NCBI GenBank assembly: GCA_001776935.1 | Contig: MFDN01000014.1 | Span: 1,464-65,463, forward strand | DNA: 64,000 nt | Direction: 5' to 3' | From: Candidatus Daviesbacteria bacterium RIFCSPLOWO2_01_FULL_39_23 | Lineage (GTDB): Bacteria; Patescibacteriota; Microgenomatia; Daviesbacterales; UBA10151 | Part shown: piece by piece, positions 3,700 to 61,552 of the stretch | Layout of the letters: each line of letters starts with the position of its first letter | Position numbering within the stretch: position 1 is the first letter of the stretch | Program-made: the position numbers and the translations under genes | The notes under the pieces: model-generated | The model's input: only the letters and a program-made list of their open reading frames with translations | The model's database searches: none | What the model was told of the DNA's origin: nothing

Positions 3700-4548
3700 T
3701 CAATTAGTATTTTGTTCTTTCTTTCCGGCATTTTTCATTCTATCGTAAGTTCCCATATACACATATCCACTATATTTAGGGTCTTGAAAATCAATTTGAC
3801 TGTAATCAAAATACGGCCCATTACCCTGAAATTTACAGGGGTTTGCAGCCCGATATGAAAGAGGAATGATAAAATCCTCCCTACTTTCAAGTCCTGGAAT
3901 GGCAGCTTTGTACTCGGCAAAAACCTCATCAGACATGTAAAGGAACATTGAATACATATTCTTTAATGGCTCGCCGTTATTAGCCTTATTTTCGGGCGGC
4001 AAAGCCATGACGCCTATCCTAACATCCAGACTTATATTTGTCGCGTCCGGATAAAACTCATTGGGATCATCAAAACCCACCAGATCGCCTGCTTTTACAG
4101 CAACTGTTCCGTTGTACTGAGGCAACGCTTTGACGTGAGCGAGGTTTATCCTGAATTGGTTAAACGGCCACCAGGGAAGCCTGCTTGATTTGGGCACAAA
4201 TGAAAAGCCCTGAAAATTTAGTGAATTGGTGATGTAGCCATCAAACGGGGCAAAAACTTTCACCTGACCCTGACTCTCAGTCTTAAACTTTGCGTTTGTC
4301 ATTATGTAATGGGCCATACTACTGTCAGGTTCTTTAGTGCTCTGGGACATAGACCGGTGCCCTTGGCAGCTTCTAAACTGACTGAAGGCAATTGTTTGAT
4401 TTAAATCAAACATGTTACGGACAATCAAAAAATCAGCAGGTGGTTTTTCCGGAGCGAATTGGCTAATACCAAAGATGAAAAAAATAAGAACAAAGGGAGA
4501 AACGCAAATCAGAAGTAGTTTCTTCCAATGTCTCTTAATAAAATCCAT
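3700..4548 (-). CDS. Hypothetical membrane-anchored protein
   Basis: 282 aa with an N-terminal TM helix (LLLICVSPFVLIFFIFGI). I recognise no motifs. Confidence 0.4.
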   Translation of the reverse strand: MDFIKRHWKKLLLICVSPFVLIFFIFGISQFAPEKPPADFLIVRNMFDLNQTIAFSQFRSCQGHRSMSQSTKEPDSSMAHYIMTNAKFKTESQGQVKVFAPFDGYITNSLNFQGFSFVPKSSRLPWWPFNQFRINLAHVKALPQYNGTVAVKAGDLVGFDDPNEFYPDATNISLDVRIGVMALPPENKANNGEPLKNMYSMFLYMSDEVFAEYKAAIPGLESREDFIIPLSYRAANPCKFQGNGPYFDYSQIDFQDPKYSGYVYMGTYDRMKNAGKKEQNTN

Positions 4549-6330: not shown

Positions 6331-6651
6331 AACTTTAGTATAGCACTTTGATTTATACCTTATCTAATGTTGCATGAGGAAGGAGATGATGAGGATTTGA
6401 AGAAGATACAAGTATTTGTTTACCAGTTATGTTGTGGAATCATGCAACACTTTTATGGGGACAATTGGGAAGTGGATTTTGACGAACTGGATTTGAAAAA
6501 TGAATAAGTTCTTGCTTCGCAATAAAGAAGACTGATTTGACAATCTAATCATGAGTTCGAATCTCGCTGGGGTTGTATGTTTTAAGACTATTTTAAACTA
6601 ATTTTCCTGACAATTTCGAGGCTAAAAGCCTTTAAAAACACAAATATCATT

Positions 6652-6726
<75 letters not shown>

Positions 6727-6798
6727 GCTCGCCATCGCTACGCTCAGGCGTTAGCGGGCGAGCCCATCTAACTTGCGTATGATGACTAATCGGATAAT

Positions 6799-7735: not shown

Positions 7736-8983
7736 ATGATGGAATTAGAGCAGCGCCTTGCTACATTTAAAAAACTCCAAAAACTAGAGGCAGGCTTGGA
7801 CAAGATTGTCCGCCTGACAGAAAATATTGGAAGCACCCCCATTGTTTCTTCTTTAGATTTAAGTCGTTTTGACGAAAATAATCCTGCGCAAACTGAGGAT
7901 TTGCTAAAGACTGCCATTAAGGCCGGAATTGTGATAGAAAGATTAAATGTTAAGGCTAAACCAATCATAGAAGGAAAGATTAGAGAAATTAAAGGTGGAA
8001 CTGAAGGAAAAAGAATGAGTAGCTTGTTTGATGAAGCTGTTAATGCATTAAACCAAAGCAGCCTCGTTCCGGCAAGAATTGTTGGAAAGGCGGCAAGATC
8101 TGTATTAGTCTACAATACACCAAGAAATTCCAATGGGACTCCCGAGGAAAGGGTTTTTACTCAAGATGGTACTCTCACTAAAACAGAAGGAGCAATACTT
8201 GCAATAGCTATTGCAGAAGCTTCACTGAAACCTGAAGCAAAAAAAATATTTACCTTAGACAGCAAGTTTTCTGGATTTTTTGGTAAATTATGCAGTTCCC
8301 TGCCTCAAAAAGGGTCCGGCGAAATGAGCGTCTCCTCTTATAATGAAGCTAAAAGGGGTATTTTAAATAAGGCTGCTTTAATGGTGGCAGATCCGCAAAA
8401 TAATCATGTAGCACGTGAGGTTAAGTTGTTGTTTGATTGGATAAATAGTTGTACGGACCAAAAGGATGTTTTTTATGAAGCTATATTAGCAGTGGATGAT
8501 TGTTCAGATGCAACTGCCGTAATAGACTTAAGAAGTAAATTTCGGAGTGTTATGCAAGCTCGGTTTGATGAAAAATTCGCGAGAGATTTAGTAGAAGTAA
8601 CCAGAGAGGGAGAAGAAGAATTAAAAAAACATAAAGAATTGGAGGAGGCAAGGAAATTAAAGGAAGCCAAAAGACTAGCAGAAGCCGAAATAAAAAAGCA
8701 ACAAGAGAAAGATAGAAATCAACTGGCAGCAAAGATGGAAAAAATATTGGTAGGTTTGTGGTCAAGAGAGGCTCCTTACATAGAAATGTTAAATGAGGCA
8801 GTAGCAATAACACCTGGATTAGAGGGGAAAAAGAGGCTAGGATTAGTTGAAAAGGCCCTTGCAATAGCTAATTTAGAGCACAGACAAGCAACAGAGTTGA
8901 ACTTTACTGAAGAAGAGATGAAAGTGGTAAAGGATGTTGCTTCAGATATTTATATGAAAAGGATTAAAGAACCTAAAAAATAA
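7736..8983 (+). CDS. Hypothetical protein with a C-terminal coiled-coil
   Basis: 415 aa. The K/E-rich heptad segment KHKELEEARKLKEAKRLAEAEIKKQQEKDR is the only feature I see; no enzymatic motifs. Confidence 0.5.
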   Translation: MMELEQRLATFKKLQKLEAGLDKIVRLTENIGSTPIVSSLDLSRFDENNPAQTEDLLKTAIKAGIVIERLNVKAKPIIEGKIREIKGGTEGKRMSSLFDEAVNALNQSSLVPARIVGKAARSVLVYNTPRNSNGTPEERVFTQDGTLTKTEGAILAIAIAEASLKPEAKKIFTLDSKFSGFFGKLCSSLPQKGSGEMSVSSYNEAKRGILNKAALMVADPQNNHVAREVKLLFDWINSCTDQKDVFYEAILAVDDCSDATAVIDLRSKFRSVMQARFDEKFARDLVEVTREGEEELKKHKELEEARKLKEAKRLAEAEIKKQQEKDRNQLAAKMEKILVGLWSREAPYIEMLNEAVAITPGLEGKKRLGLVEKALAIANLEHRQATELNFTEEEMKVVKDVASDIYMKRIKEPKK

Positions 8984-10711: not shown

Positions 10712-10754
10712 TTCTGTTAAGGTTACACCTTGGTCAAGGTGTAACCTTGGTAAA

Positions 10755-21803: not shown

Positions 21804-21844
21804 TCCTTTCAATTCGGGTCTTTTTCGTGTTAGAATATATTTTT

Positions 21845-21892
21845 CAGTCATCAGTCATCAGACAGGAAAATCTGAAGACTGAAAGCTGACGA
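21845..21892 (+). repeat. Imperfect palindromic hairpin element (CAGTCATCAG / CTGAAGACTGA units) directly upstream of uvrB
   Basis: TCAGTCATCAGTCATCAGAC-AGGAAAA-TCTGAAGACTGAAAGCTGACGACT. A related copy lies at 60793..60844. Confidence 0.5.
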
Positions 21893-21897
21893 CTATT

Positions 21898-24130: not shown

Positions 24131-24301
24131 TAAATTCGCTTTCCTGTCATTCTGGGGCGAAGCCGGAGAATATAATTTCCACAATTTCCACCTGGGAGGT
24201 GGCCCAGGTGTTGGAGTGTTAGACTGTTGTCGACTGTTATAGGATATTCTGCAACTAAAATCCACCTCCCGGGTGTTAAAGTGTTAAATGAACTGCTTTA
24301 G

Positions 24302-26151: not shown

Positions 26152-29100
26152 TTAACTTTGTAAAACTGCCAGATAATCTGAAAAAAGACTGGGCGCAGCA
26201 ATCAAAATATCACGGGAAATATTGTAAAAATCCGTTCTATCTTCATTAGACCATTTTTCTTTTGCAAATTTCTCTTCCATAATATAAATTCCATGGAATA
26301 CTTCAGATTTAGTTCTTTGCGCCGTGGTATCGCGGGCAAAACTATCATGCAGGCTAAGAATAAAATTGCTGAGAGATTCAAGCTGGCTAAGGGGTCCTGC
26401 ATCGCCATAAAGTGAAATTATTCCCGGTACTGCTAATAAGGAGAAAGGCATAATTTCTACACCTCCGCTTTTAAGATACTTTTCCCAGATGCTTCGGAAT
26501 TGATTAAGACAAAAATCCCTAGTTTTTGGTTCTCCAAACAGGGCAATGAGTTTTTCTTTTTGTGCAGTATTACTAAGGAGATGGTGATAGGGGTTATTCA
26601 TAATTTCAATGTAAGCCATTAACAAAGGCATCCAATTTTGCCCATTTATTGTGACTGTTTCCTGATCAAGCATTTGTTTGAGAGATTCTTGTTGTTTGAA
26701 TAAAGTAGCCTGGCAAAAATTCTTAAGCATTCTCTTGTCAATTTTTCCCAAACGCCCCAAGCTTTTTCCAAGTTCCGCGTCTTGCGTTAGATTAAGATTG
26801 AAAAACCCTTTTTCTTCGGCTTCTGTAAAGATTTCTAATCCTTCATCTGTCTCAAGGAATATTTCCGGGTAGCTTTCTGCCAAAGAAAAATTAGGATTTT
26901 TAAAGACCGGTCCGGCTTTGGAAGATAGCTCCAAGGCTCTTGCTTTAGTAAGTTTACCTCTGTCCACGAGATTTAGCATTTTAAAAATGATTGTTTTGTC
27001 AAAATCACGGTAACTTACAACCATGTCCTGAAAAAAATGTGAGGTTTGTTCGCCTTGAAATTGATATAATAATTGATGAAGGAGTGACAAGTCAGTGGTT
27101 AAGGCCGGGCAAATTTGCCAGGCTGTCAAAAGAGGCTCGAGCAAATTCGCATCAAAGCTTGATTCTCCTATTCTTGAAATCAACTTACCGTCTGTTAAAT
27201 AGATAATTACTCCCTTATTATGCTGATTTTGGATGATTTTTTGCGCTAATTTGTAAAATCTGTTTTGGATAATGTTTTTAGCCTCAGCTGCTTCTTTTTC
27301 CAGTCTACATTGTTCAAGCGACGGCCCCCATTCATCTATCATGTGCCCTGCATCAGACCATCCGACCGTATGCGCCGGTCTTTCCAGCTGGCCGGAAACA
27401 GACTTGAAGCACAGGAGTAATTTTTCTCTTAAGCTATTCAAAAAATACGCTCCGCTAATTTTTGCTGCCTGCTCAAAGACTTTTGATTCAGCCTCTGTGA
27501 TAACACCATTTTCTTCTAGTAAACCAAGGAGAGGAGTGATGGTTAGGCTGTCTGTTGCCATCTCCTTTAATGCCGGGTCTACCCCGGGTTCGTTTATGAT
27601 TGAAAGTGCAAGATTTGTTGCAGCTTCCCTGAATTTGGAGCGGATACCCCACTGCTGCAGGCCTTCCGGAATTTTTCTGGTTAATACCTCCCTGGCTGAT
27701 TTTAAGCTTGGATACACAGTTTCAGCTTGATCTAAAATAGAAGACCAGTCAGGCTTTTTGTTAAGTAAATTTAAAGCTCCAATTGCAGCATCAACTCCGT
27801 GGCTGGTATTTGCGGCTGCTGCTATCAATACTAAATTTCTGATAGTAGAAGGATGCGGGTATTCAGCAATAAAGTACACAACATGGCCTTGGTCGTCTTT
27901 AAGAGAATCCTTAAGTGCAAGTGAATAAAACAAGTTATCCTGCTCGCTGACAGCATCGCCCAGGACTTGAGCAGCAGCTTCTGATGTTTTGGCTGCCTGC
28001 CAGAAAGCCATTTTTGAACTAGAAGGGTACCTTATTTCACTATAAATTTCTTCCCAAAATTTTATATGACCTATAAAACCAGAGTTGCTACCATAGGTGC
28101 GATTATGCCGCAGATTGCTAATCTTGATATATTTTAATAAACCTTGGTGGAAATTACCAGAGCCCTCTGTTAGGTGGGTCTCTATTGCACTGCTTAGTAA
28201 ATAAATGTCACGCACAGCCATGTTATTGAGTAACTCGGCTACCAATGTTTTATTCATATCTTCCAAAAGCGGCTGGCAGCTTATTTTGAAGTCAGCAATT
28301 GTAAAACTTCCAGCATCATCAATATCTGCTTCAAGCAATTTTTTTAATCTGTCAACAGGAGTTTGACCAGCCTTATTTTGTTTTGTTGGACTAGTTATAT
28401 AATCCCGAAGAACTGTGTAGTATTTTCTTTGATCAGCCCAAATAAATGGATGCTCTTTGGGAATTTTTCTAAGCTTTGGTAAGATTACTTTTAAGATGTA
28501 AGTTTTAGCAAAGTCTGCTGGCAGGGTGCCGTCTGTAATAATTTCATCCGCCATTTCTTTGTACCCTTCTGAGATAGCTGAAAATTCCTGCTTAATTTCC
28601 TCTAAGATTGTTGCTTCCCGTTTTTGAGTCAGTTCATTTTGATTACCCTCGATTCCATTTATTGCTTTTTGTTTTTGTTCAAGCTGGCTTGCTGCTTCCG
28701 CAGCCTGGGCATCAAGTGAATCTTTTTGTGCTGAAAGTTCTTTTCTTTTTCTGCGGGTAAAAAATCTTCTGAGTCCGCGGATTTGGTCAACCTCCTGATG
28801 TTGTGCTGCAACTTCTTGGGCATTTTCTGTTAAGCGTTGGTATTCCCGCTCAATTGCAGATTTTTCCTGAGCTGTTTGAGCTTTTAACTGAAGAATACAT
28901 TGCAAAGCAATACTGCTTCTTGCCAGGTATTCGGCTGCAGAGCCCGGGGGTATTTTTTGCAAATCTTCCAATAAGTCTTGCAGATTTTGAGGAGAGGTTT
29001 TAATTTCGCTATCAGGCTCCGGAGGCGTTACAGTCAGGTTATTTATTAAGGCAGGAGCATTTTCAACATACTGGCTGGTTCGGGCCCTTAAGGAGTTTAG

Positions 29101-29318: not shown

Positions 29319-32261
29319 ATGGCTATAGACAAGATAATAATCAAAGGTGCCCGTGAGCACAATCTAAAAAATATAGATTTGGAAATTCCTAAAAACAAAC
29401 TGGTGGTTTTAACCGGCATTTCCGGCTCCGGCAAATCTTCTTTGGCTTTTGATACTTTATATGCAGAAGGCCAAAGGAGATACGTGGAATCCCTTTCTTC
29501 TTACGCCCGGCAGTTTTTAGGGGTAATGGATAAGCCTGATGTGGATCTTATCGAAGGGCTTTCCCCGGCCATTTCCATTGATCAAAAAGGTGTTTCGCAC
29601 AATCCGCGTTCCACTGTTGGTACCACCACTGAAATTTATGATTATTTAAGACTCTTGTTTGCCCGCATCGGCCATCCGCATTGCCCTGTTTGCGGAGCAG
29701 AAGTCTCCAAAATGAGCGTGGAGCAGATAGCAGAAAAAGTGACAAGTGATAAGCAACAAGTTACAAGTAAAGGAAGGAGGATAATGGTTTTGGCGCCTGT
29801 TGTAAAAGACCGGAAAGGGGAATACAGTCAGCTTTTTGAAGACTTAAAGAAAAAAGGATTTTCAAAAGCCCGGATTGACGGTCATATAAGGGATTTATCC
29901 GAGGATTTAGTTTTAATTAAAACTAACAAACATACGATTGACTTGGTTGTAGACCGGCTGGTCTTAGAGTCAGAAGTCAAGAGTCAAAAGTCAAGTGAGG
30001 CAAATTCTAGACTCTCGACTCTAGCTACTAGACTCTTGCAGAGTATTGAGACAGCGCTAAAATTTGGCGAGGGATCTGTAATTATTTCTGAAGTTTTGGA
30101 TGCGTCTTTGGAGTTTCCGCAAAACCCGAAAAAAATGAAAGATCACCTGTACTCTGAAAGATTTGCCTGCCCGGTAGACAATATATCTTTGCCGGAAATT
30201 GAACCAAGGCTGCTTTCTTTTAATTCTCCCCATGGTGCCTGTCCTAAATGTTCAGGTTTAGGCACACTTCTTGAGATAGACGAAACCACTATTTTAAACC
30301 CGATTCTTTCCATTGAAGAAGGCGGGATACTTCCCTGGTCAAAGCTGGCAACATCTGATACCTGGTTTACCAAGCTTGTAACTGCAGTGGGTAAAGAATA
30401 CGGGTTCGACCTTAGTACAAGGCTTGGGAGTTTGACGCCTGAGGCTAAGCAAATCCTGCTTTTTGGTTCAGGCGACAAGGAATTTAAAGTGGAAGGAAGA
30501 AACAGACAGGGTAAATGGACGCACTTTTATTCTGAATTTTCCGGACTTGTCGCCTACCTTAAGCAAAGGTATGAAACTTCTGAATCAGACTTTGTCAAAG
30601 CGGAGATAGAAAAATATATGTATAAGGAAACTTGCCCCAAATGTAAGGGCGCAAGGCTGAAAGATGAGGCTTTATCAATCACAATAGACAGTTTAAATAT
30701 TGCAGAAGTAACCGGACAGTCAATAGTGCAGACCCTTGAATGGATAAAATCAATTCAAATCAATGGTCGGGAAGCGCAAATTGCCACCCCTGTTGTGAAA
30801 GAGATTAAGGCCAGACTGCAATTTCTGATAGATGTCGGTCTGGATTATCTGACTTTGGACCGGGCTGCGCAAACTTTGGCAGGAGGAGAAAGCCAGCGGA
30901 TCAGGCTTGCCTCACAAATTGGCTCAGGTTTATCAGGTGTTTTATATGTTTTGGATGAGCCATCAATAGGTTTACACCAGCGCGATAACGCGCGTCTTAT
31001 ACAAACACTTAAAAAATTACGGGATTTAGGCAATACGGTGGTGGTTAATGAACACGACGCTGAGACAATGGAAGCTGCGGACCTTTTGATAGAAATCGGT
31101 CCGGGAGCAGGCGAGCACGGCGGCAACATAGTGGCTATAGGTACGCCTGATCAGATCAAAAAAAACGCAGCATCTTTAACAGGCCAATATCTTTCCGGTA
31201 AAAAAAGAGTGACTGTTCTCAGTCACCCCAAAGATGCCCCAGAGCGACAGGCGAAGGATCTTATTAATGGTAAATTTCTTAAGATTAAGGGAGCCAGTGA
31301 GCATAACTTAAAAAATATCAATGCAGAATTTCCTTTGGGTAAATTTATTGCTGTCACAGGCGTTTCAGGATCGGGAAAGTCAACGCTAATTCATGACATT
31401 TTGTACCGGGCTCTGGCGCAAAAAATATACCGCTCCCGCGAAAAGGCAGGGGCTTATAAAGAAATGGAAGGCGTAGAAAATATCGACAAAGTGGTGCTTG
31501 TGGATCAATCTCCTATTGGCCGGACTCCCCGATCTAATCCTGCCACCTATACCGGCGCTTTTACATTCATAAGGGATCTTTTTGCCAATTCTCCCGAAGC
31601 AAAAATAAGGGGATATGGACCGGGCAGATTTTCTTTCAATGTTAAAGGAGGACGGTGCGAGGTTTGTGAAGGGGAAGGAACTTTAAAGATTGAAATGCAG
31701 TTTTTGCCTGATGTATATGTGACTTGTGAGGCCTGCAATGGTAAAAGATACAACAGGGAAGCGCTTGAAATTCATTTTAAAGAAAAAACAATTGCAGATG
31801 TTTTGGATATGACAGTTGAGGAGGCTTTAAAGTTTTTTGAAAATATTCCTTATATAAAAAATAAACTGCAGGTTCTAAATGATGTAGGTCTTGGTTATAT
31901 CAGGCTGGGCCAGCCTGCGCCCACTTTATCCGGCGGAGAAGCTCAAAGGATCAAACTTTCATCTGAATTATCCAAACGGCCCACAGGACATACCATGTAT
32001 ATTTTGGATGAGCCCACCACGGGTTTACACTTTGCAGATATAGAAAGACTGCTGGCAATCCTTAGAAAACTTGTAAATTTTGGTAACACCGTGATAATCA
32101 TTGAACATAATCTGGATGTTATCAGGAATACTGACTGGATTTTGGACTTGGGACCGGAAGGCGGCGATAAAGGCGGAAAAATAGTTGCTGAAGGCACGCC
32201 TGAAAATATCGCCAAGCTTAAAGCTTCCCACACCGGTCAGTATCTGGCAAAGATAACATGA
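29319..32261 (+). CDS. uvrA: Excinuclease ABC subunit A
   Basis: Two ABC ATPase modules ([14 protein letters not shown] and [13 protein letters not shown]), a zinc-finger (CPVCG) and signature LSGGE motifs are present. The ORF track begins at 29232, but the conserved N-terminus [19 protein letters not shown] starts at 29319. Confidence 0.95.
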
Positions 32262-32292: not shown

Positions 32293-34251
32293 ATGTTTAG
32301 AAAAACGCTGGTAGTTTTACCCCATTTTTTGAGATACGTGATACGTGATACGAAATATGTTATTTTTATACTGTTTTTACTTATCACTTGTCACTTATCA
32401 CTTATCCCTCCTGTGTTTGCTGCAGAGGAATTTGCAACCTCCTATGATGTGTTATACGACATAGGTGAGGACGGCATTGCTACTATTACTGAAAAAGTTA
32501 ATCTGCGTAATTTAACCTCTGAATATTATGCCAATCAATTTAAGCTGACTATCGGCGCCACTCAGATTTCCGATATTAAGGCTTCGGATGCAGGCGGCAG
32601 CTTGGAAATTGCAAGCGAGCAAAAAGAAAATCTGACTACAATCAGCGTTAAATTCAATCAGCAGGTGGCAGGTCTTGGGAAAAATTTACCCTGGACTATT
32701 TCATTTAAATCTAAAGATTTCGCTGAAAAAGTCGGCAAGATTTGGGAGGTTAGGGCGCCCCGGATTTCGCCCACTTCCAACCCGGAAAGTTATAACTTAA
32801 CATTGTCTGTTCCCAAAATCTTTGGTGATCCTTCGCAAATTTCCCCAACCCCGAAAAGCCAGACAGTTTCAGGAAATAAACTATTTTTAACATTTGATAT
32901 GGAGCAACTGAAGTCTTCCGGAGTATCCGCCACTTTCGGCCAGAACCAGCTTTTTGACTTTGATCTTACTTATCATTTGGAAAATAATAATCTGGTGCCT
33001 GTCCGCACTAATATTGCCCTGCCTCCTGACACTTCTTTTCAGGATGTTATTTATCAAAGGATAGAACCTAAACCGCTGAATGTCACTCTGGATAATGACG
33101 GTAACTATTTAGCCTGGTTCCGTTTGGAAAGAGGTCAAAAAATGGATGTTAAAGTTTTTGGATCTGCAAAGCTTTATTCAAGTTCCAAAGTTAAAAATCC
33201 CTTTTTAGAAGAAAGCTTAAGAAATAAATATACTTCTGCGGATAAATATTGGGAAAAAGATAATCCGCAAATTATCAGTAAAGTAAATGAGATTTTGGGT
33301 AAAAATCCTCCTCCGGATAACGGGGAAAAGGCGAAACTTATTTTCCGTTTTGTAGTAAACTTTTTGAAATATGATTCCTCGCGGCTTGAGGGCAACATAG
33401 AAAGATTCGGAGCAGTTACTGCGTTAAATAATCCGGATACTGCCGTATGCATGGAGTTTACAGACCTTTTTATAGCGCTTGCAAGAGCCGCCGGCATTCC
33501 TGCGCGTGAATTAAACGGATACGCCTACAGCGCCAATAATGCTTTGCGCCCGCTTTCTTTAACAAAAGATATCCTCCATTCCTGGCCGGAATATTGGAAC
33601 GCAAGCCGCGGATGGGTGATGGTGGATCCAACCTGGGAAAATACCACGGGTGGAGCGGATTATTTCAGCAAGTTGGACCTTAATCATTTTGCCTTTGTGG
33701 TAAAAGGTTCGTCTTCATCCGAACCGATTCCTGCCGGGTCTTATAAATATACGGGTCAGGAAGATACGCGGGATGTTAAAGTTTCTCTGTCTGATACGGA
33801 CTTTTTGGGGCATCCTCAGATTGATGTTGTTTTAGAGTCCCTCAATCCGGTTATTTCCGGTTTTCCCGGCAAGCTGGTTATTAAGGTTACAAATACCGGC
33901 AATTCTTTTTTTCCTTCCGATTCCCTGACAATAAACTCGAACAAACTGACAATCCAAAACTCCAAAACCCAAAAGTTGGGTATAATTCCCCCTTTTGGAA
34001 GTTCGGTATTTGAATTTAATGTCAGGACAAAATCCTTATTTGATTCTTTTACAGATCAAATGACAATTGCCATAGGCAATCAAAAATTTACACAGGAAGT
34101 GAAGGTAGCTCCTTTTATTTTATTTCAAACAGTTCCGCTGATTATTTCTGCAGTTGCCGCTTTTATGGTTTTGGTGTATGCGGTGATTTTAGGTGTCTTC
34201 ATTTACCGGAAGCGGATTCTTAAAGCAAAGCTTCAAGCCGGTAAATCATGA
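32293..34251 (+). CDS. Transglutaminase-like domain membrane protein
   Basis: A signal/TM segment is followed by a core VCMEFTDLFIALARAAGIPARELNGYAY...SWPEYW...GWVMVDP (Cys-His-Asp transglutaminase-like triad context) and a C-terminal TM helix. Its stop overlaps uvrC by 4 bp. Confidence 0.7.
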   Translation: MFRKTLVVLPHFLRYVIRDTKYVIFILFLLITCHLSLIPPVFAAEEFATSYDVLYDIGEDGIATITEKVNLRNLTSEYYANQFKLTIGATQISDIKASDAGGSLEIASEQKENLTTISVKFNQQVAGLGKNLPWTISFKSKDFAEKVGKIWEVRAPRISPTSNPESYNLTLSVPKIFGDPSQISPTPKSQTVSGNKLFLTFDMEQLKSSGVSATFGQNQLFDFDLTYHLENNNLVPVRTNIALPPDTSFQDVIYQRIEPKPLNVTLDNDGNYLAWFRLERGQKMDVKVFGSAKLYSSSKVKNPFLEESLRNKYTSADKYWEKDNPQIISKVNEILGKNPPPDNGEKAKLIFRFVVNFLKYDSSRLEGNIERFGAVTALNNPDTAVCMEFTDLFIALARAAGIPARELNGYAYSANNALRPLSLTKDILHSWPEYWNASRGWVMVDPTWENTTGGADYFSKLDLNHFAFVVKGSSSSEPIPAGSYKYTGQEDTRDVKVSLSDTDFLGHPQIDVVLESLNPVISGFPGKLVIKVTNTGNSFFPSDSLTINSNKLTIQNSKTQKLGIIPPFGSSVFEFNVRTKSLFDSFTDQMTIAIGNQKFTQEVKVAPFILFQTVPLIISAVAAFMVLVYAVILGVFIYRKRILKAKLQAGKS

Positions 34252-35558
34252 TCCCCTCATTTGTAGAAAAAACCCGGGTTCCAAAAAAACCCGGCGTCTA
34301 TATTTTTAAGGATAAAACAGGCAGGGTTTTATATGTCGGAAAAGCAATAAACCTGTACAACCGCGTATCCTCATATTTTTCCCACGTTAAATCAGGCAAA
34401 ATATCCTCACTTGTGGATCAAATCAGTGCCGCAGAAACTATAACTTGCGAATCCGAACTTGAGGCTTTGATTTTAGAAGCCAATTTCATTAAAAAATATT
34501 TACCTCCTTTTAATGTCAGACTGGTGGATGATAAGGATTACTTATATATAGTCATAACTAAAGAAGATTTTCCCAAAGTTATTACAGCCAGAAAAAAGGA
34601 ACTTGAAGGTGCGGAAAAATACTGGGGGCCTTTCCCTTCTGCCCGGACAGTTAGGGATACATTAAAATCTTTACGCAGAATCTTTCCCTGGTGTAGTCAA
34701 AAAAAGCTCTTTGCTGTTAGCCGTTCGCTATTGGCAGCTAATAGCCAAAAGCTAATAGCCAATAGCTATAAACCTTGTTTTTACTATCACTTAGGTTTGT
34801 GTCCGCCGGGTGCATGTATGGGGTTAATTTCCGAAAAAGACTATAACAGGATTATTAGCAGATTTTCTAAATTTATGGACGGCAAAAAAGAACAGCTGTT
34901 GTCTGATCTTACAAAAGAAATGATGCAGGCCTCAGGTAAGCAAAAGTTTGAAGATGCAGCGAGGATCAAAAAGACTATTAACGGGATTTTGTATATGACC
35001 CAGCCCCAAAGGACCAACCTTTATTTGGAAAACCGGAATTTTTTGGAAGAAGAAAGGGAGCTTGCTTTAAAAACTCTGCAAAAGGATTTAAATTTAAAAA
35101 CTTTGCCGCAAAGGATAGAAGGATATGATATTTCCAATATCTCAGGCAAAGAGGCCACAGGTTCTTTGGTTGTTTTAACAAACGGGGAGATTGATAAATC
35201 CCAATACAGAAAATTTAAGATTCATATTACCGGCAGACCTAATGATGTAGGTATGCATAAAGAGATGCTGATAAGACGCTTAAACCATCCCGAGTGGCCT
35301 ATGCCCGATTTAATTATTGTTGACGGCGGCAGGAGTCAGGCAAAAGCTATGCAAAGCATACTACATACTACCAGCTACATAATACCAATTTTTGGCCTTG
35401 CAAAAAGGATGGAGTGGTTATACCCGCCTGAGGGAGAGATAATAAAACTTCCAAAAAGAAGCCTTTCCTTGAAGCTCCTGCAAAAATTACGGGATGAATC
35501 ACACAGATTTGCCTTGAGCTATCACAGAAAACTTCGTGATAAGATAATGATAGGATGA
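34248..35558 (+). CDS. uvrC: Excinuclease ABC subunit C (short form lacking the C-terminal HhH domain)
   Basis: GIY-YIG N-terminus (GVYIFKDKTGRVLYVGKAINLYNRVSSYF), a Cys-rich region, and the endonuclease region ending ESHRFALSYHRKLRDK. Length is 436 aa, against about 600 for typical UvrC. Confidence 0.85.
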   Translation: MIPSFVEKTRVPKKPGVYIFKDKTGRVLYVGKAINLYNRVSSYFSHVKSGKISSLVDQISAAETITCESELEALILEANFIKKYLPPFNVRLVDDKDYLYIVITKEDFPKVITARKKELEGAEKYWGPFPSARTVRDTLKSLRRIFPWCSQKKLFAVSRSLLAANSQKLIANSYKPCFYYHLGLCPPGACMGLISEKDYNRIISRFSKFMDGKKEQLLSDLTKEMMQASGKQKFEDAARIKKTINGILYMTQPQRTNLYLENRNFLEEERELALKTLQKDLNLKTLPQRIEGYDISNISGKEATGSLVVLTNGEIDKSQYRKFKIHITGRPNDVGMHKEMLIRRLNHPEWPMPDLIIVDGGRSQAKAMQSILHTTSYIIPIFGLAKRMEWLYPPEGEIIKLPKRSLSLKLLQKLRDESHRFALSYHRKLRDKIMIG

Positions 35559-51066: not shown

Positions 51067-51684
51067 GTGAAAAAGAAGTTATCAATTGTTTGGATTGTTA
51101 TTATTTTTGCTGTATTAGGAATGGTTGGAGGTACAGTTTTTGTAAACCGGAATCTTCAGGTATTACAGCAAACTGTGCCTCAAGCCGTACAAAAAGAGGC
51201 TGTAACGCCCATACTTGCTCAAAGTAAGGAAAGCGTGCAGGCGGCTGAGCCGCGGCTTATCAGTATTCCTAAAATTAATATCACTGCAGATGTGGAATCT
51301 GTTGGCGAGGATGAAAAAGGCAGGATGGCAGTTCCCGGGGAAGTAATGAATGTGGGATGGTATAAACTTGGCTATAAGCCCGGAGAAAAAGGCAGTGCGG
51401 TATTTGCAGGACATTTGGATAAAGTTACCGGTGAACCGGCAGTTTTTTATGATATCAGTAAATTATCAGCAGGTGATGAAATTATTGTAACGGACAAAAA
51501 CGGCAAAAAATTAACTTTTGAAGTTATTAAATCCCAAGTTTATCCCTTTGATGAAGTCCCACTTAAGGAGGTATTTCTTAGTACTGATAAAATCCGGTTG
51601 AATTTGATCACCTGTACAGGATCATGGAATAAAGATGATAAAAACTACTCCAACAGACTGGTTGTTTATTCTCAGCTGAAGTAA
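51067..51684 (+). CDS. Sortase (class E/F-like transpeptidase)
   Basis: An N-terminal TM helix is followed by the catalytic His region (AVFAGHLD), Cys (LNLITCTGSW) and Arg (NRLVVYSQ). Confidence 0.75.
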   Translation: MKKKLSIVWIVIIFAVLGMVGGTVFVNRNLQVLQQTVPQAVQKEAVTPILAQSKESVQAAEPRLISIPKINITADVESVGEDEKGRMAVPGEVMNVGWYKLGYKPGEKGSAVFAGHLDKVTGEPAVFYDISKLSAGDEIIVTDKNGKKLTFEVIKSQVYPFDEVPLKEVFLSTDKIRLNLITCTGSWNKDDKNYSNRLVVYSQLK

Positions 51685-55330: not shown

Positions 55331-56173
55331 ATGAAACCTAATAACCTTAAAACCAAAATCTTTTTAGACAGCGGTGATCCCAAGGAAACTGAAGAAATCA
55401 AAAACCTGCTGGGTTTTTTGGACGGCCAAACCACCAATCCTTCTTTAATTGCCAAAAACCCTGATGCCTTGGGCAAAAAATTCTCCAAAGAAGAAATCGC
55501 CTCATTTTATAAAGATGTAGTTGAAAAAGTTAATTCAATTATTCCGGAAGGCTCAATTTCCATAGAAGTTTATGCGGATAAAGATTCTACCTCTGATGTT
55601 CTTTTGGAAGAAGGCCGCAAAATGTTTTCCTGGATCCCAAATGCCCATATTAAATATCCAATCACAAAAGCAGGCCTGGAAGCAGCAGAAAAATCCGTGA
55701 AAGAGGGGATCAGGTTGAATATGACTCTCTGCTTTTCACAGGAACAGGCAGCTGCTGTTTATTCTGCAACAAGTGGGGGGGGAAATACCTATGTTTCCCC
55801 TTTTGCCGGCAGGTGGGATGATAAAGGCTTTAACGGTATGGATTTAATAAAAAACATTTTAAAAATGTATGAAAACGGTGACGGACACGTAAAAGTTTTG
55901 GCAGCCTCTATCAGAAATATGGATCATTTTTTGTGTTCGCTTGCTATGGGAGCAGATATTATTACAGCTCCTTTTAAAATCCTGAAAGAATGGGCAGATA
56001 ATGGAATGCAAATCCCCGGGCCTGATTATGTTTATCCCAAAGGGGAGTTAAAAGAAATTCCTTATCAGGAAATTAGTTTGGATAAGCCATGGCAGGAATA
56101 TGAAATCTTACACGAAATGACAGACGCAGGCCTGGAAAAATTCTCCACAGACTGGAACAACCTTATTGCCTAA
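55331..56173 (+). CDS. Transaldolase / fructose-6-phosphate aldolase family protein
   Basis: FLDSGDPKETEE (the FLDTA-type start), the Schiff-base Lys region IKYPITKAGLEA, and VSPFAGR are present. Confidence 0.8.
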   Translation: MKPNNLKTKIFLDSGDPKETEEIKNLLGFLDGQTTNPSLIAKNPDALGKKFSKEEIASFYKDVVEKVNSIIPEGSISIEVYADKDSTSDVLLEEGRKMFSWIPNAHIKYPITKAGLEAAEKSVKEGIRLNMTLCFSQEQAAAVYSATSGGGNTYVSPFAGRWDDKGFNGMDLIKNILKMYENGDGHVKVLAASIRNMDHFLCSLAMGADIITAPFKILKEWADNGMQIPGPDYVYPKGELKEIPYQEISLDKPWQEYEILHEMTDAGLEKFSTDWNNLIA

Positions 56174-56175
56174 AA

Positions 56176-56214
56176 TCCTACCTCCGAGGTAGAAATGAGG
56201 CTATACCTAGGGTT
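56176..56214. repeat. REP-like palindromic element, copy 2 (CCTACCTCCGAGGTAG...ATACCTAGGGTTT)
   Basis: It lies immediately downstream of the stop of the RAYT-like gene. Its core is the inverted version of the copy-1 core. Confidence 0.6.
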
Positions 56215-56217
56215 TAT

Positions 56218-56631
56218 CTATTCCTCCAAAGCTAAGTGTTTTATTAATTCTAATTTTTGAGCATAGTCAACTTGGTCTAAAACAAACTCTTCATACGTAT
56301 GTTCGCTTTTGAACATAGAAAGAACAAAATCTTTGGAACAGGCTTTATCAAACTGCGAACTAATATAATTCTGATAAGAGGACCAGGGATACTCTTTCAA
56401 ATCCTTTACAAGGAAGGAGGCGATGGGATTTAGGTGAATATATCGTGAGACATGAATTAATTGTTCATCAGATTCAATCCTCAGAGCCTTAAATTGACCT
56501 TGTAGCAGAGGCCCTACCCGACTATATCTGGTATTAAAATATTTTGTATAACTGTTAGATATCTTGCTGATAAATTCAGAAATACCATTATCCTGAATCT
56601 GCCGAATTAAAAAATGATAGTGGTTGGGCAT
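56218..56631 (-). mobile_element. Truncated IS200/RAYT-like HUH (Y1) transposase gene
   Basis: MPNHYHFLI (HuH motif) ... RVGPLLQGQFKALRIESDEQLIHVSRYIHLNPI (the conserved RYIxxNP end of Y1 transposases). The upstream in-frame sequence stays open for about 45 codons (…KKIIEILCYCL-MPNHYHF) with no ATG, GTG or TTG, so the N-terminus looks lost or degenerate. Confidence 0.6.
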
Positions 56632-56815
56632 TAGGCAGTAACAAAGTATTTCTATAATTTTTTTATTTTTCTCAAACTTAAAATCCTTAAATCTATTAAG
56701 CTGAGAAAATTGAGGTTTAGGACCTTGATACTGATAATAGTAATAAATACATGATAAATCTGATCGTTTACTAGGGGAGTTTTACGATAGGGCATTAATA
56801 AGACTAAATCACATA

Positions 56816-56876
56816 AAACCCTACGTGTCAATATGTTTTCACCTCGGAGGTAGGAGTGCGTTGATACCTAGGGTTT
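56816..56876. repeat. REP-like palindromic element, copy 3 with extended stem (AAAACCCTACG...CACCTCGGAGGTAGGAGTGC...ATACCTAGGGTTTT)
   Basis: It lies upstream of the RAYT-like ORF and at the 3' end of the HAD gene. The outer arms AAAACCCTA / TAGGGTTTT are complementary. Confidence 0.6.
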
Positions 56877-56882
56877 TAGTAT

Positions 56883-61510: not shown

Positions 61511-61552
61511 TTGTGTTAAGGTCGCACCTTGACAAAGGTGCGACCTTGGTAA

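Follow-up and report, generated by a model that had tools for sequence, protein, structure and literature searches.

A species-specific in-frame palindrome of heptamer units in the uvrC gene of a Daviesbacteria genome

A 64-kb stretch of DNA from Candidatus Daviesbacteria bacterium RIFCSPLOWO2_01_FULL_39_23 (contig MFDN01000014.1, positions 1,464 to 65,463; hereafter the window, whose first letter is position 1) carries within its uvrC gene a 63-nt imperfect palindrome (34705-34767), which is translated in frame as 21 codons and lies in the Cys-rich loop of the nucleotide excision repair (NER) protein UvrC. The element is classed as an in-frame palindromic insertion, a kind that is already known, and with a probability of about one half it is species-specific, near-neutral repeat DNA that arose in place in a loop tolerant of inserts. 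In such a process, replication slippage in 7- or 14-nt steps would have added heptamer units with an AGCT core, a fold-back (template-switch) event would have converted a portion of the array to its complement to give a hairpin of 31 + 31 nt, and only those products that were in frame and free of stops would have survived in the gene, in this case 63 nt, or nine units and 21 codons. We infer both the generating steps, slippage and strand switching, and the neutrality of the result from the anatomy of the element and from its distribution among relatives.

The two arms of the hairpin (34705-34735 and 34737-34767) are 31 nt each, are 77% complementary and are separated by 1 nt, and within them a 9-nt arm, GCTATTGGC (34727-34735), pairs perfectly with GCCAATAGC (34758-34766). 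An earlier note on this DNA had claimed perfect 9-nt arms with internal direct repeats at 34727-34766, and the sequence reads exactly so; that extent is too small, the full feature being 34705-34767, and the note missed the heptanucleotide periodicity, which is considered the key to the origin of the element. Within it AGCTAATAGCCAAA and AGCTAATAGCCAAT form a 14-nt tandem repeat of 93-94% identity, and Tandem Repeats Finder (TRF) resolves the forward strand at 34736-34768 both as AGCTAATAGCCAAA repeated 2.4 times (period 14, 94% matches) and as a heptamer, AGCYAAW, repeated 4.4 times (period 7, consensus AGCCAAT, 79% matches). Read in register, the left arm consists of four nGCYnTT units (AGCTCTT, TGCTGTT, AGCCGTT and CGCTATT) and the right arm, which follows a 3-nt centre, of four to five AGCYAAW units (AGCTAAT, AGCCAAA, AGCTAAT, AGCCAAT and the beginning of another, AGC). 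The units of the left arm are complementary to those of the right, such that about nine units are contained in 63 nt as two arrays of opposite polarity. With at least three tandem 7-nt units the element is by definition a heptanucleotide simple sequence repeat (SSR), and it is at once a tandem and an inverted repeat because the AGCT core is self-complementary, which makes the array nearly its own reverse complement. The 14-nt duplication within it is young. Since the unit is 7 nt long, only changes by multiples of three units are neutral to the reading frame, and of the three sense frames of the element just one is open, namely the frame in use.

As sense-strand RNA the element folds with −26.3 kcal/mol (z = −4.2), which none of 200 dinucleotide shuffles equalled, and this fold ranks 8th among ∼6400 sliding 70-nt windows of the 64 kb at a GC content of 40%. 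The antisense strand gives z = −2.5, and the use of DNA energy parameters gives z = −2.0. No intrinsic terminator (a GC-rich stem followed by a run of T) and no promoter was found at the element, and an Rfam search of the window gave tRNAs only at gathering score and matched the element to no family. No GTAG or CGTC tetranucleotide abuts the stem ends (34700-34772). [quoted passage not shown]

The uvrC gene (34248..35558, forward strand) encodes a protein of 436 residues with GIY-YIG (PF01541, 4e-10), UVR (PF02151, 3e-5) and UvrC RNase H (PF08459, 1.6e-42) domains in addition to the Cys-rich iron-sulfur motif, and its best homologs are UvrC proteins of other Daviesbacteria. A domain search gave no match to the (HhH)2 domain, and the protein ends 14 residues past the RNase H domain; since all of the 120 closest homologs are 402-456 residues long, the absence of the C-terminal helix-hairpin-helix (HhH) domain, to which the earlier note had already pointed, is a trait of the whole lineage. 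The element encodes LFAVSRSLLAANSQKLIANS, which is situated between Cys149 (34692-34694) and Cys177 (34776-34778) of a motif that reads C149-X27-C177-X3-H-X3-C185-X4-C190 (34692..34817, forward strand). In characterized UvrC proteins the four cysteines bind an iron-sulfur cluster, the consensus is CX6-14CX3H/QX3CX3C, and the motif juts out of the enzyme's core (PMC10085695). All four cysteines and the histidine are retained in the window protein, but their spacing is outside the consensus, the spacer of 27 residues between the first two cysteines being about twice the longest consensus spacing of 14. The spacing of the last pair also differs, as the window protein has CPPGAC (X4; 34800-34817) where every other aligned Daviesbacteria homolog has CPGAC (X3), and the extra CCG codon behind this is present in the widely sampled exact UvrC protein. 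An AlphaFold2 model built with 100 homologs gave no secondary structure and a predicted local distance difference test (pLDDT) score below 50 over residues 150-188. To judge from its sequence, UvrC with the insert probably still works, since the insert sits in a protruding motif.

The spacer between the first two cysteines measures 6-41 residues (median 13) across 119 other UvrC proteins from Daviesbacteria, 52 of which have more than 14, and their loops contain unrelated inserts or none. An in-frame palindromic insertion between the UvrC cysteines, as first proposed for this gene, is therefore borne out by its spacer of 27, where these homologs have a median of 13 and go down to 6, and the proposed gain of about 16 residues is close to the ∼17-21 extra residues found here. 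The loop can be regarded as tolerant of inserts because of this range of lengths, the low pLDDT and the protruding position of the motif. The window insert itself is confined to its own species. The loop is identical in every full-length member of the 90%-identity cluster, while the next homologs are at most 69% identical and all are without the insert, the collections searched holding no UvrC relative between 69 and 99% identity. The scenario that the earlier note had set against its own proposal, an insert present throughout the phylum with conserved protein and non-palindromic DNA, thus fails. The exact UvrC protein is found in many public assemblies (53 index blocks were listed and 29 contigs counted), including a source labeled Candidatus Daviesbacteria bacterium GW2011_GWC2_40_12, and a variant of 99% identity (P0001) could be placed on no contig. 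Four independent assemblies have identical uvrC DNA; relative to the window they show 0-2 substitutions and two or three indels, none of them at a repeat, and no heptamer array was polymorphic in unit number across the four.

DNA was obtained for 80 uvrC loci (42 of them from Daviesbacteria) plus one more, and these, together with the proteins, show that the UvrC loop between the first two cysteines and loops of other Uvr proteins are hot spots for hairpin inserts (contigs and loci are cited by L numbers and UvrC proteins by P numbers). Several inserts recur among the relatives but are mutually unrelated, such as 'QSRFVNSIPNRDWK', 'FLD..AKTRQRPCF', 'PPRLQAKY' and 'SQGxALR', and in a neighbor-joining tree of 121 UvrC proteins these families are scattered among lineages with short loops. 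Gains and losses are not countable because the tree is too star-like at 63-69% identity, and only the trio P0090, P0024 and P0072 gives a clean recent gain. Many of the uvrC loops of relatives fold as strong hairpins whose sequences are unrelated to each other, for example ATCCCGGTTTG-12 nt-CAAACCGGGAT in L002, CTCGCAAGGCC-AGG-CCTTGCGAG in L003, CTCCAGGGC-CTC-GCCCTGGAG in L004 and AAAACACGG..CCGTGTTTT in L024, and the 41-residue insert of L063 reaches −65.6 kcal/mol. The 27-residue loop of L005 has the same design as the window element but is built of GTCTACA units. A GTAG tag near the hairpins of L002 and L027 was dropped as it is native coding sequence (NVAEQ / KRRPCF), and an Rfam search with the hairpin inserts of L063, L039 and L008 gave no match at E ≤ 1.

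How such hairpins might form is suggested by the uvrC loops of L081 (10001-11302) and L017, which are a clean pair of filled and empty sites. L081 has 54 nt more than L017, arranged as X - loop - X' - X, in which X repeats the codons of the adjacent conserved PCF(Y), and this insertion bears the signature of a local inverted duplication. Similarly, in the 'KTRxRPCF' hairpins of many relatives the codons for KTR (AAAACAAGG) are the reverse complement of those for PCF (CCTTGTTTT). In the older-looking 'RFVN..RD' inserts of L008 and L020 the hairpin is gone (z ∼ −0.5), a decay that is expected where there is no selection for structure. Another set of inserts was noted in L063, in uvrC (7767-7892) and at residues 257-276 of uvrA, with the termini GTCATTsnGAG...CTCnsAATGAC, and the same termini occur in the uvrA of L008, L015, L016 and L039 at a 'DKxVI' site. 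They encode peptides such as VIARSEAT.Q and ..RNDx and in L063 lie in the reading frame of two NER genes, and searches for them gave no Rfam family and no match in the literature. We take them to resemble a hairpin repeat that is widespread across many bacterial phyla.

The window itself contains further arrays and hairpins of the same type. Tandem arrays of period 7 were found at six loci (seven TRF arrays, as one uvrA locus is listed as two arms), five of which lie within the 13 kb from uvrB to uvrC, and four of these five, including the uvrC element, are hairpins with heptamer arms, each based on a different unit. One is an in-frame hairpin in uvrA (29958-30036, forward strand, −28.1 kcal/mol, z = −3.0) made of inverted arrays of AGAGTCA (4.3 copies) and TCTAGAC (4.4 copies), which is a lineage-specific insertion in the UvrA alignment and is probably the 'first' in-frame palindromic insertion meant by the earlier note; AGAGTCA-type arrays are also present in the uvrB and/or uvrA of L014, L015, L021, L023, L027, L038 and L039. 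A second, of TCAGTCA units (21844-21894, forward strand, z = −3.9), lies in the 94-nt gap just before the uvrB start codon (21898). The third (32333-32406, forward strand, z = −3.2), with GATACGT repeated 2.9 times and ACTTATC 4.0 times, is at the 5' end of a transglutaminase-like gene between uvrA and uvrC and is translated within an N-terminal segment that most homologs lack. Two arrays were recorded in addition, AAGTGAC repeated 4.6 times inside uvrA (29737-29768), and one of period 14 with 1.9 copies in uvrC (35361-35387), at a second variable spot of that gene (∼nt 1050-1125) where heptamer arrays with differing units are found in ∼20 Daviesbacteria loci. That several unrelated unit sequences (TCAGTCA, AGAGTCA, GATACGT and GTCTACA) have given hairpins of one design fits a generating process better than it fits one transposed family. 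Heptanucleotide repeats are the most abundant class of long SSR in many bacteria and have been attributed to polymerase slippage (PMC4679880, PMC4692102), and template switching can make a whole hairpin in a single event (PMC10710096).

Several observations weigh against formation in place. There is no empty-site or intermediate allele of the window insert, as the next relatives are at most 69% identical, and both arms are inside the insert with no donor sequence in the flanks, unlike the situation in L081. The array is not visibly unstable now, given that its length does not vary among the four assemblies. Extragenic heptamer hairpins of the same class occur in unrelated bacteria, including another lineage of the Candidate Phyla Radiation (CPR) from the same aquifer sample, and horizontal spread could be an alternative source of them. 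Lastly, the concentration of arrays and hairpins in the uvr genes (0.12-0.42 versus 0.010 arrays per kb) goes beyond what slippage alone would give and requires an extra assumption, be it tolerance, local mutational context or function.

This concentration is seen at several levels. The uvrA, uvrB and uvrC genes of Daviesbacteria are strongly enriched in heptamer arrays, with 24 arrays of period 7 in uvrC (0.415 per kb), 12 in uvrB (0.186 per kb) and 13 in uvrA (0.115 per kb), or 49 in 235 kb; other coding DNA, 404 kb in total, has 4 (0.010 per kb). The counts, however, treat orthologous sites as independent and are uncorrected for shared ancestry, such that a nominal Poisson probability overstates the enrichment. 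In loci from outside the Daviesbacteria the contrast is weaker (0.126 per kb in uvrC versus 0.033). Perfect hairpins, counted as stems of at least 9 bp, have densities of 0.26 per kb in uvrC, 0.155 in uvrB and 0.08 in uvrA, compared with 0.059 in other coding DNA and 0.25 in intergenic DNA, which places uvrB and uvrC at 2.6-4.4 times other coding DNA. Between SATPxxYE and EQLxRPTG, half of 32 Daviesbacteria uvrB genes have segments of 12-37 residues in place of the 9-10 residues of the base state, and z is below −2 in 69% of the 16 genes with an insert versus none of the 16 without; the window uvrB has a short base-state loop at this site that is colonized in relatives. Among 28 lineage-specific insertions in UvrA 46% have z below −3, in comparison with 0-10% of control segments. 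Such insertions are prone to form hairpins in UvrC and two further ortholog groups as well, and are not so in the transglutaminase-like protein and one other group.

A different origin, possible but unlikely in our estimation, is that the element was a small non-autonomous mobile element, perhaps old and diverged and akin to a MITE or to a REPIN (a doublet of repetitive extragenic palindromic, or REP, sequences that forms a hairpin), which was inserted by an HUH Y1 transposase of the IS200-like or REP-associated tyrosine transposase (RAYT) type acting on single-stranded hairpins and, having come to lie in frame in the tolerant loop, was kept in the manner of Rickettsia palindromic elements. 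The genome does contain a RAYT-like gene (56218..56631, reverse strand, Pfam Y1_Tnp), and REP-like hairpins, AAACCCTAGGTAT..CTACCTCsGAGGT, flank it on both sides (∼56170-56218 and 56812-56880), but the gene is broken at its N terminus, the C-terminal two thirds that remain encoding 137 residues versus 213-223 in relatives. The only NCBIfam match of its product is to NF047646, REP-associated tyrosine transposase, and is below the cut-off (57.9 versus 80 bits). Of the 43 Daviesbacteria loci obtained, 13 have a RAYT-like homolog no more than 10 kb from uvrC (14 of 44 sources with the window), often between uvrA and the transglutaminase-like gene. For 11 full-length copies of 213-223 residues (the L015 open reading frame reads 249) the flanks were read, namely those of L009, L018, L006, L016, L017, L005, L063, L038, L015, L014 and L007, at ∼3-14 kb in each locus, and hairpins of the type (C/A)ACCTnnnAGGT(G/T), species-specific in sequence, adjoin these genes, on both sides in most. 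These genes are situated within or beside the uvr cluster, and the arrangement, which is conserved across Daviesbacteria, matches the REP-RAYT-REP order described for REPINs (PMC3116915, PMC5581495).

Sequences of this type are moreover present within the repair genes of relatives. Allowing at most one mismatch, CACCTCSGAGGTG occurs 28 times in 767 kb versus 0.35 expected, with nine sites in uvrA, nine in uvrB, nine in intergenic DNA, one in the transglutaminase-like gene and none in other coding DNA, and all 18 sites in uvrA and uvrB are in frame. The window has six CACCTCSGAGGTG-like palindromes versus 0.44 expected, at 24189, 24263, 51688 and 59570 and in the two flanks of the RAYT-like gene. 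In L022 one inverted doublet of ∼50 nt, CACCTCCGAGGTG-23 nt-CACCTCGGAGGTG, is translated in both uvrB (3988-4036) and uvrA (6589-6637); inverted doublets of this type were also noted in L008, L017 and L023. A second family, CAAtCCCGGTTTG-TCAAnnCAAAnn-CAAACCGGGaTTG, with a conserved TCAAnnCAAAnn loop, is found in the uvrB of four genomes and in the uvrC of a fifth, and it retains a stem of 13-15 bp through compensatory changes, as seven of 15 pairs have changed on both sides, 93% of cells are paired and none of 500 shuffles reached the observed score. Part of the pattern in this lineage thus appears, on its sequence, to be REPIN-like DNA inside genes. The window uvrC element carries neither CACCTCSGAGGTG nor the TCAAnnCAAAnn-loop motif, however, and the flanks of the window RAYT-like gene are unrelated to its GCTATTGGC/AGCTAATAGCC.

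The search for further copies also argues against a mobile origin. That the element is a repeated one had been suggested earlier, but its short words are not over-represented in the window (13 matches to its 9-mers versus 15.2 expected, and four to its 10-mers versus 3.85), and a blastn-short search with the 72-nt region 34701-34772 against the window and 81 loci (1.4 Mb) returned only chance matches of 11-14 nt. The window is estimated to be roughly 5-6% of a CPR-sized genome, and the relatives were sampled as 10-kb uvrC flanks. A literature search on the repeat sequences themselves gave nothing relevant. A metagenome scan for three consecutive AGCYAAW units yielded at least 120 very diverse contigs with GC contents of 0.28 to 0.70, and among the matches listed 21 of 120 have an inverted partner (at least 17 of 21 bases complementary) within 100 nt, versus none of 120 control flanks; most of these pairs are extragenic hairpins with heptamer arms. 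One of them, of the AGCTAAT type, is directly downstream of rpsG in a Candidatus Buchananbacteria contig (L147, 2012-2039) whose source, JGI sample 3300025317, has also given an assembly that carries the window uvrC, and similar hairpins, again among the matches listed, are on contigs of 31-70% GC (for example L123, L190, L171, L201 and L163). The element aligns with several metagenome hairpins, L171, L123 and L190 among them, at 80-85% identity over ∼55 nt. Although extragenic inverted arrays of AGCYAAW in unrelated bacteria might suggest mobility, shuffles of unit order scored 40.7 on average and up to 69 versus the observed 65, and the alignments are evidence of a recurring architecture rather than of homology because the similarity is largely forced by the search pattern and by hairpin symmetry. 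Leaving aside the weak AAAAGCT match and the fact that the whole element is one inverted repeat, neither a GTAG/CGTC tag nor a target-site duplication or terminal inverted repeats were found at the element, and four hairpins in the cluster with four unit sequences are unlike the spread of a sequence by a sequence-specific transposase.

A role in cis is somewhat less likely still. In this case the hairpins and heptamer arrays of the uvrB leader, uvrA and uvrC would be either targets made of double-stranded RNA (for RNase III, to name one) through which NER expression is held low, or phase-variable switches of the reading frame. The gene-specific enrichment, both of arrays and of perfect hairpins, would then have a ready explanation, but it is derived from the same counts that are uncorrected for shared ancestry. 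The hairpin in the uvrB leader, the stronger fold of the sense strand of the uvrC element (z of −4.2 versus −2.5) and the covarying stems of the uvrB hairpin family point the same way, as does the fact that gain or loss of one 7-nt unit shifts the frame. However, the arrays consist of few, inexact copies (4.4 units, 79% matches), their length does not vary in the four assemblies, the protein is identical on the 29 contigs counted, and the element has no terminator-like tail and no Rfam family. Furthermore, the presence, position and sequence of the hairpins vary by species, many species have short base-state loops and older inserts are without a hairpin. A more far-reaching form of this idea, which we hold to be improbable, is that hairpins and heptamer tracts mark the NER genes as a control layer based on structure or repeat number, of which the uvrC insert would be a working part together with the translated hairpins of uvrA and uvrB, the uvrB leader hairpin and a domesticated RAYT gene in the cluster. 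It would act either via double-stranded RNA processing of uvr transcripts or through frame switching that turns repair off and on as a mutator switch.

That the insert is ordinary loop variation selected at the protein level, for example as an amphipathic segment near the iron-sulfur cluster, with its DNA symmetry incidental, is consistent with its being in frame, stop-free and fixed in the species and with the variable loop length across the lineage, but is very improbable, as it does not predict complementary arms of 31 nt, a z of −4.2 or a 7/14-nt periodicity that cuts across codons, the peptide is conserved in no relative, and AlphaFold2 predicts no structure for the insert. Beside the element neither a reverse transcriptase gene nor features of splicing or of a homing endonuclease were seen, although no search was aimed at an intein, intron or diversity-generating retroelement, and these were set aside because such features are lacking there and the variation is in length.

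Some other features of the window deserve mention. The strongest hairpin (51121-51190, −33.9 kcal/mol) is within a sortase gene (51067..51684) and was rejected as an insertion, as the linker of homologs is similar in length; it sits in the linker past the membrane anchor of a class F-like sortase, and a relative of 74% identity keeps both arm peptides. Two intergenic perfect palindromes, at 10719-10748 (AAGGTTACACCTTG..) and 61518-61547 (AAGGTCGCACCTTG..), belong to one family and differ in their stems by a compensatory change from TA to CG, and a GC-rich hairpin (6701-6770, 67% GC, −29.8 kcal/mol) abuts a tRNA gene (6655-6726). Compared with the window, the L082 assembly has a 150-nt deletion at ∼40592, and the L084 assembly has a 1-nt insertion at 26161, where the gene caller gives one open reading frame of 1541 residues instead of two of 521 and 1015.

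On its own the uvrC insert is a curiosity, and its value is as an entry to a pattern that we did not find described, in which three NER genes of one CPR lineage are a preferred home of translated hairpin DNA, comprising heptamer-arm hairpins, local inverted duplications and REPIN-like doublets tied to the hairpins around a RAYT-like gene. Were this pattern genome-wide, it would carry the idea of 'selfish DNA inside proteins' over from Rickettsia to the CPR, place sequences of the REP/REPIN type within genes instead of between them, and provide a natural series of empty, filled and decaying sites in which hairpin insertion and its accommodation by proteins can be studied. It also raises the question of why repair genes in particular are involved.

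Among known systems, the closest parallels are the Rickettsia palindromic elements (RPEs) and in-frame intragenic MITEs, in which palindromic DNA likewise lies in frame in conserved genes, where it adds a peptide and does not destroy the protein, and RPEs insert in frame in genes at an unusually high frequency (PMC10969869). Like them, the uvrC element is in-frame palindromic DNA in a conserved gene and is absent from orthologs. RPEs, however, are ∼150 bp long and belong to multi-copy families whose encoded peptide is conserved, while the uvrC element is 63 nt long, is built of heptamer units and is unrelated in sequence to its sister hairpins, and neither the 64-kb window nor the 1.4 Mb of related loci yielded a second copy. 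With REPINs it shares two inverted units that form a hairpin in single-stranded DNA or mRNA and a genome that has a RAYT-like gene with REP-like hairpins, and the uvrA and uvrB of relatives hold REPIN-like doublets of the RAYT-flank motif type. REPINs are nevertheless extragenic by definition, high in copy number and matched to the flanks of RAYT genes (PMC3116915, PMC5581495), and a GTAG or CGTC tetranucleotide at one end is a conserved REP feature (PMC3733652); the uvrC element lies inside a gene, occurs once in the data searched and does not match the RAYT flanks. The known heptanucleotide SSRs of bacteria include the heptamer repeats of cyanobacteria, TAACTGA in Beggiatoaceae and the GGGAATC arrays of Xanthomonas, some of them inverted (PMC4679880, PMC4692102), and the uvrC element resembles these in its tandem 7-nt units and in that such arrays are sometimes inverted pairs able to form stem-loops. 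Those arrays are overwhelmingly intergenic, whereas the one in uvrC is translated in a conserved enzyme and constrained in unit number by the frame, and the unit-number polymorphism by which heptanucleotide SSRs are also defined was not seen in it across four assemblies. The local inverted duplication and near-perfect stem are as in template-switch (quasi-palindrome) mutations, whose signature is seen in the X - X' - X insertion of L081 (PMC10710096), but for the window element, which has no donor sequence or ancestral state, the event is reconstructed. Finally, inverted repeats in coding sequence with both arms translated are reported for the mitochondria of Nematomorpha (PMC6649704), where in an animal organelle they are long perfect repeats of up to 284 bp.

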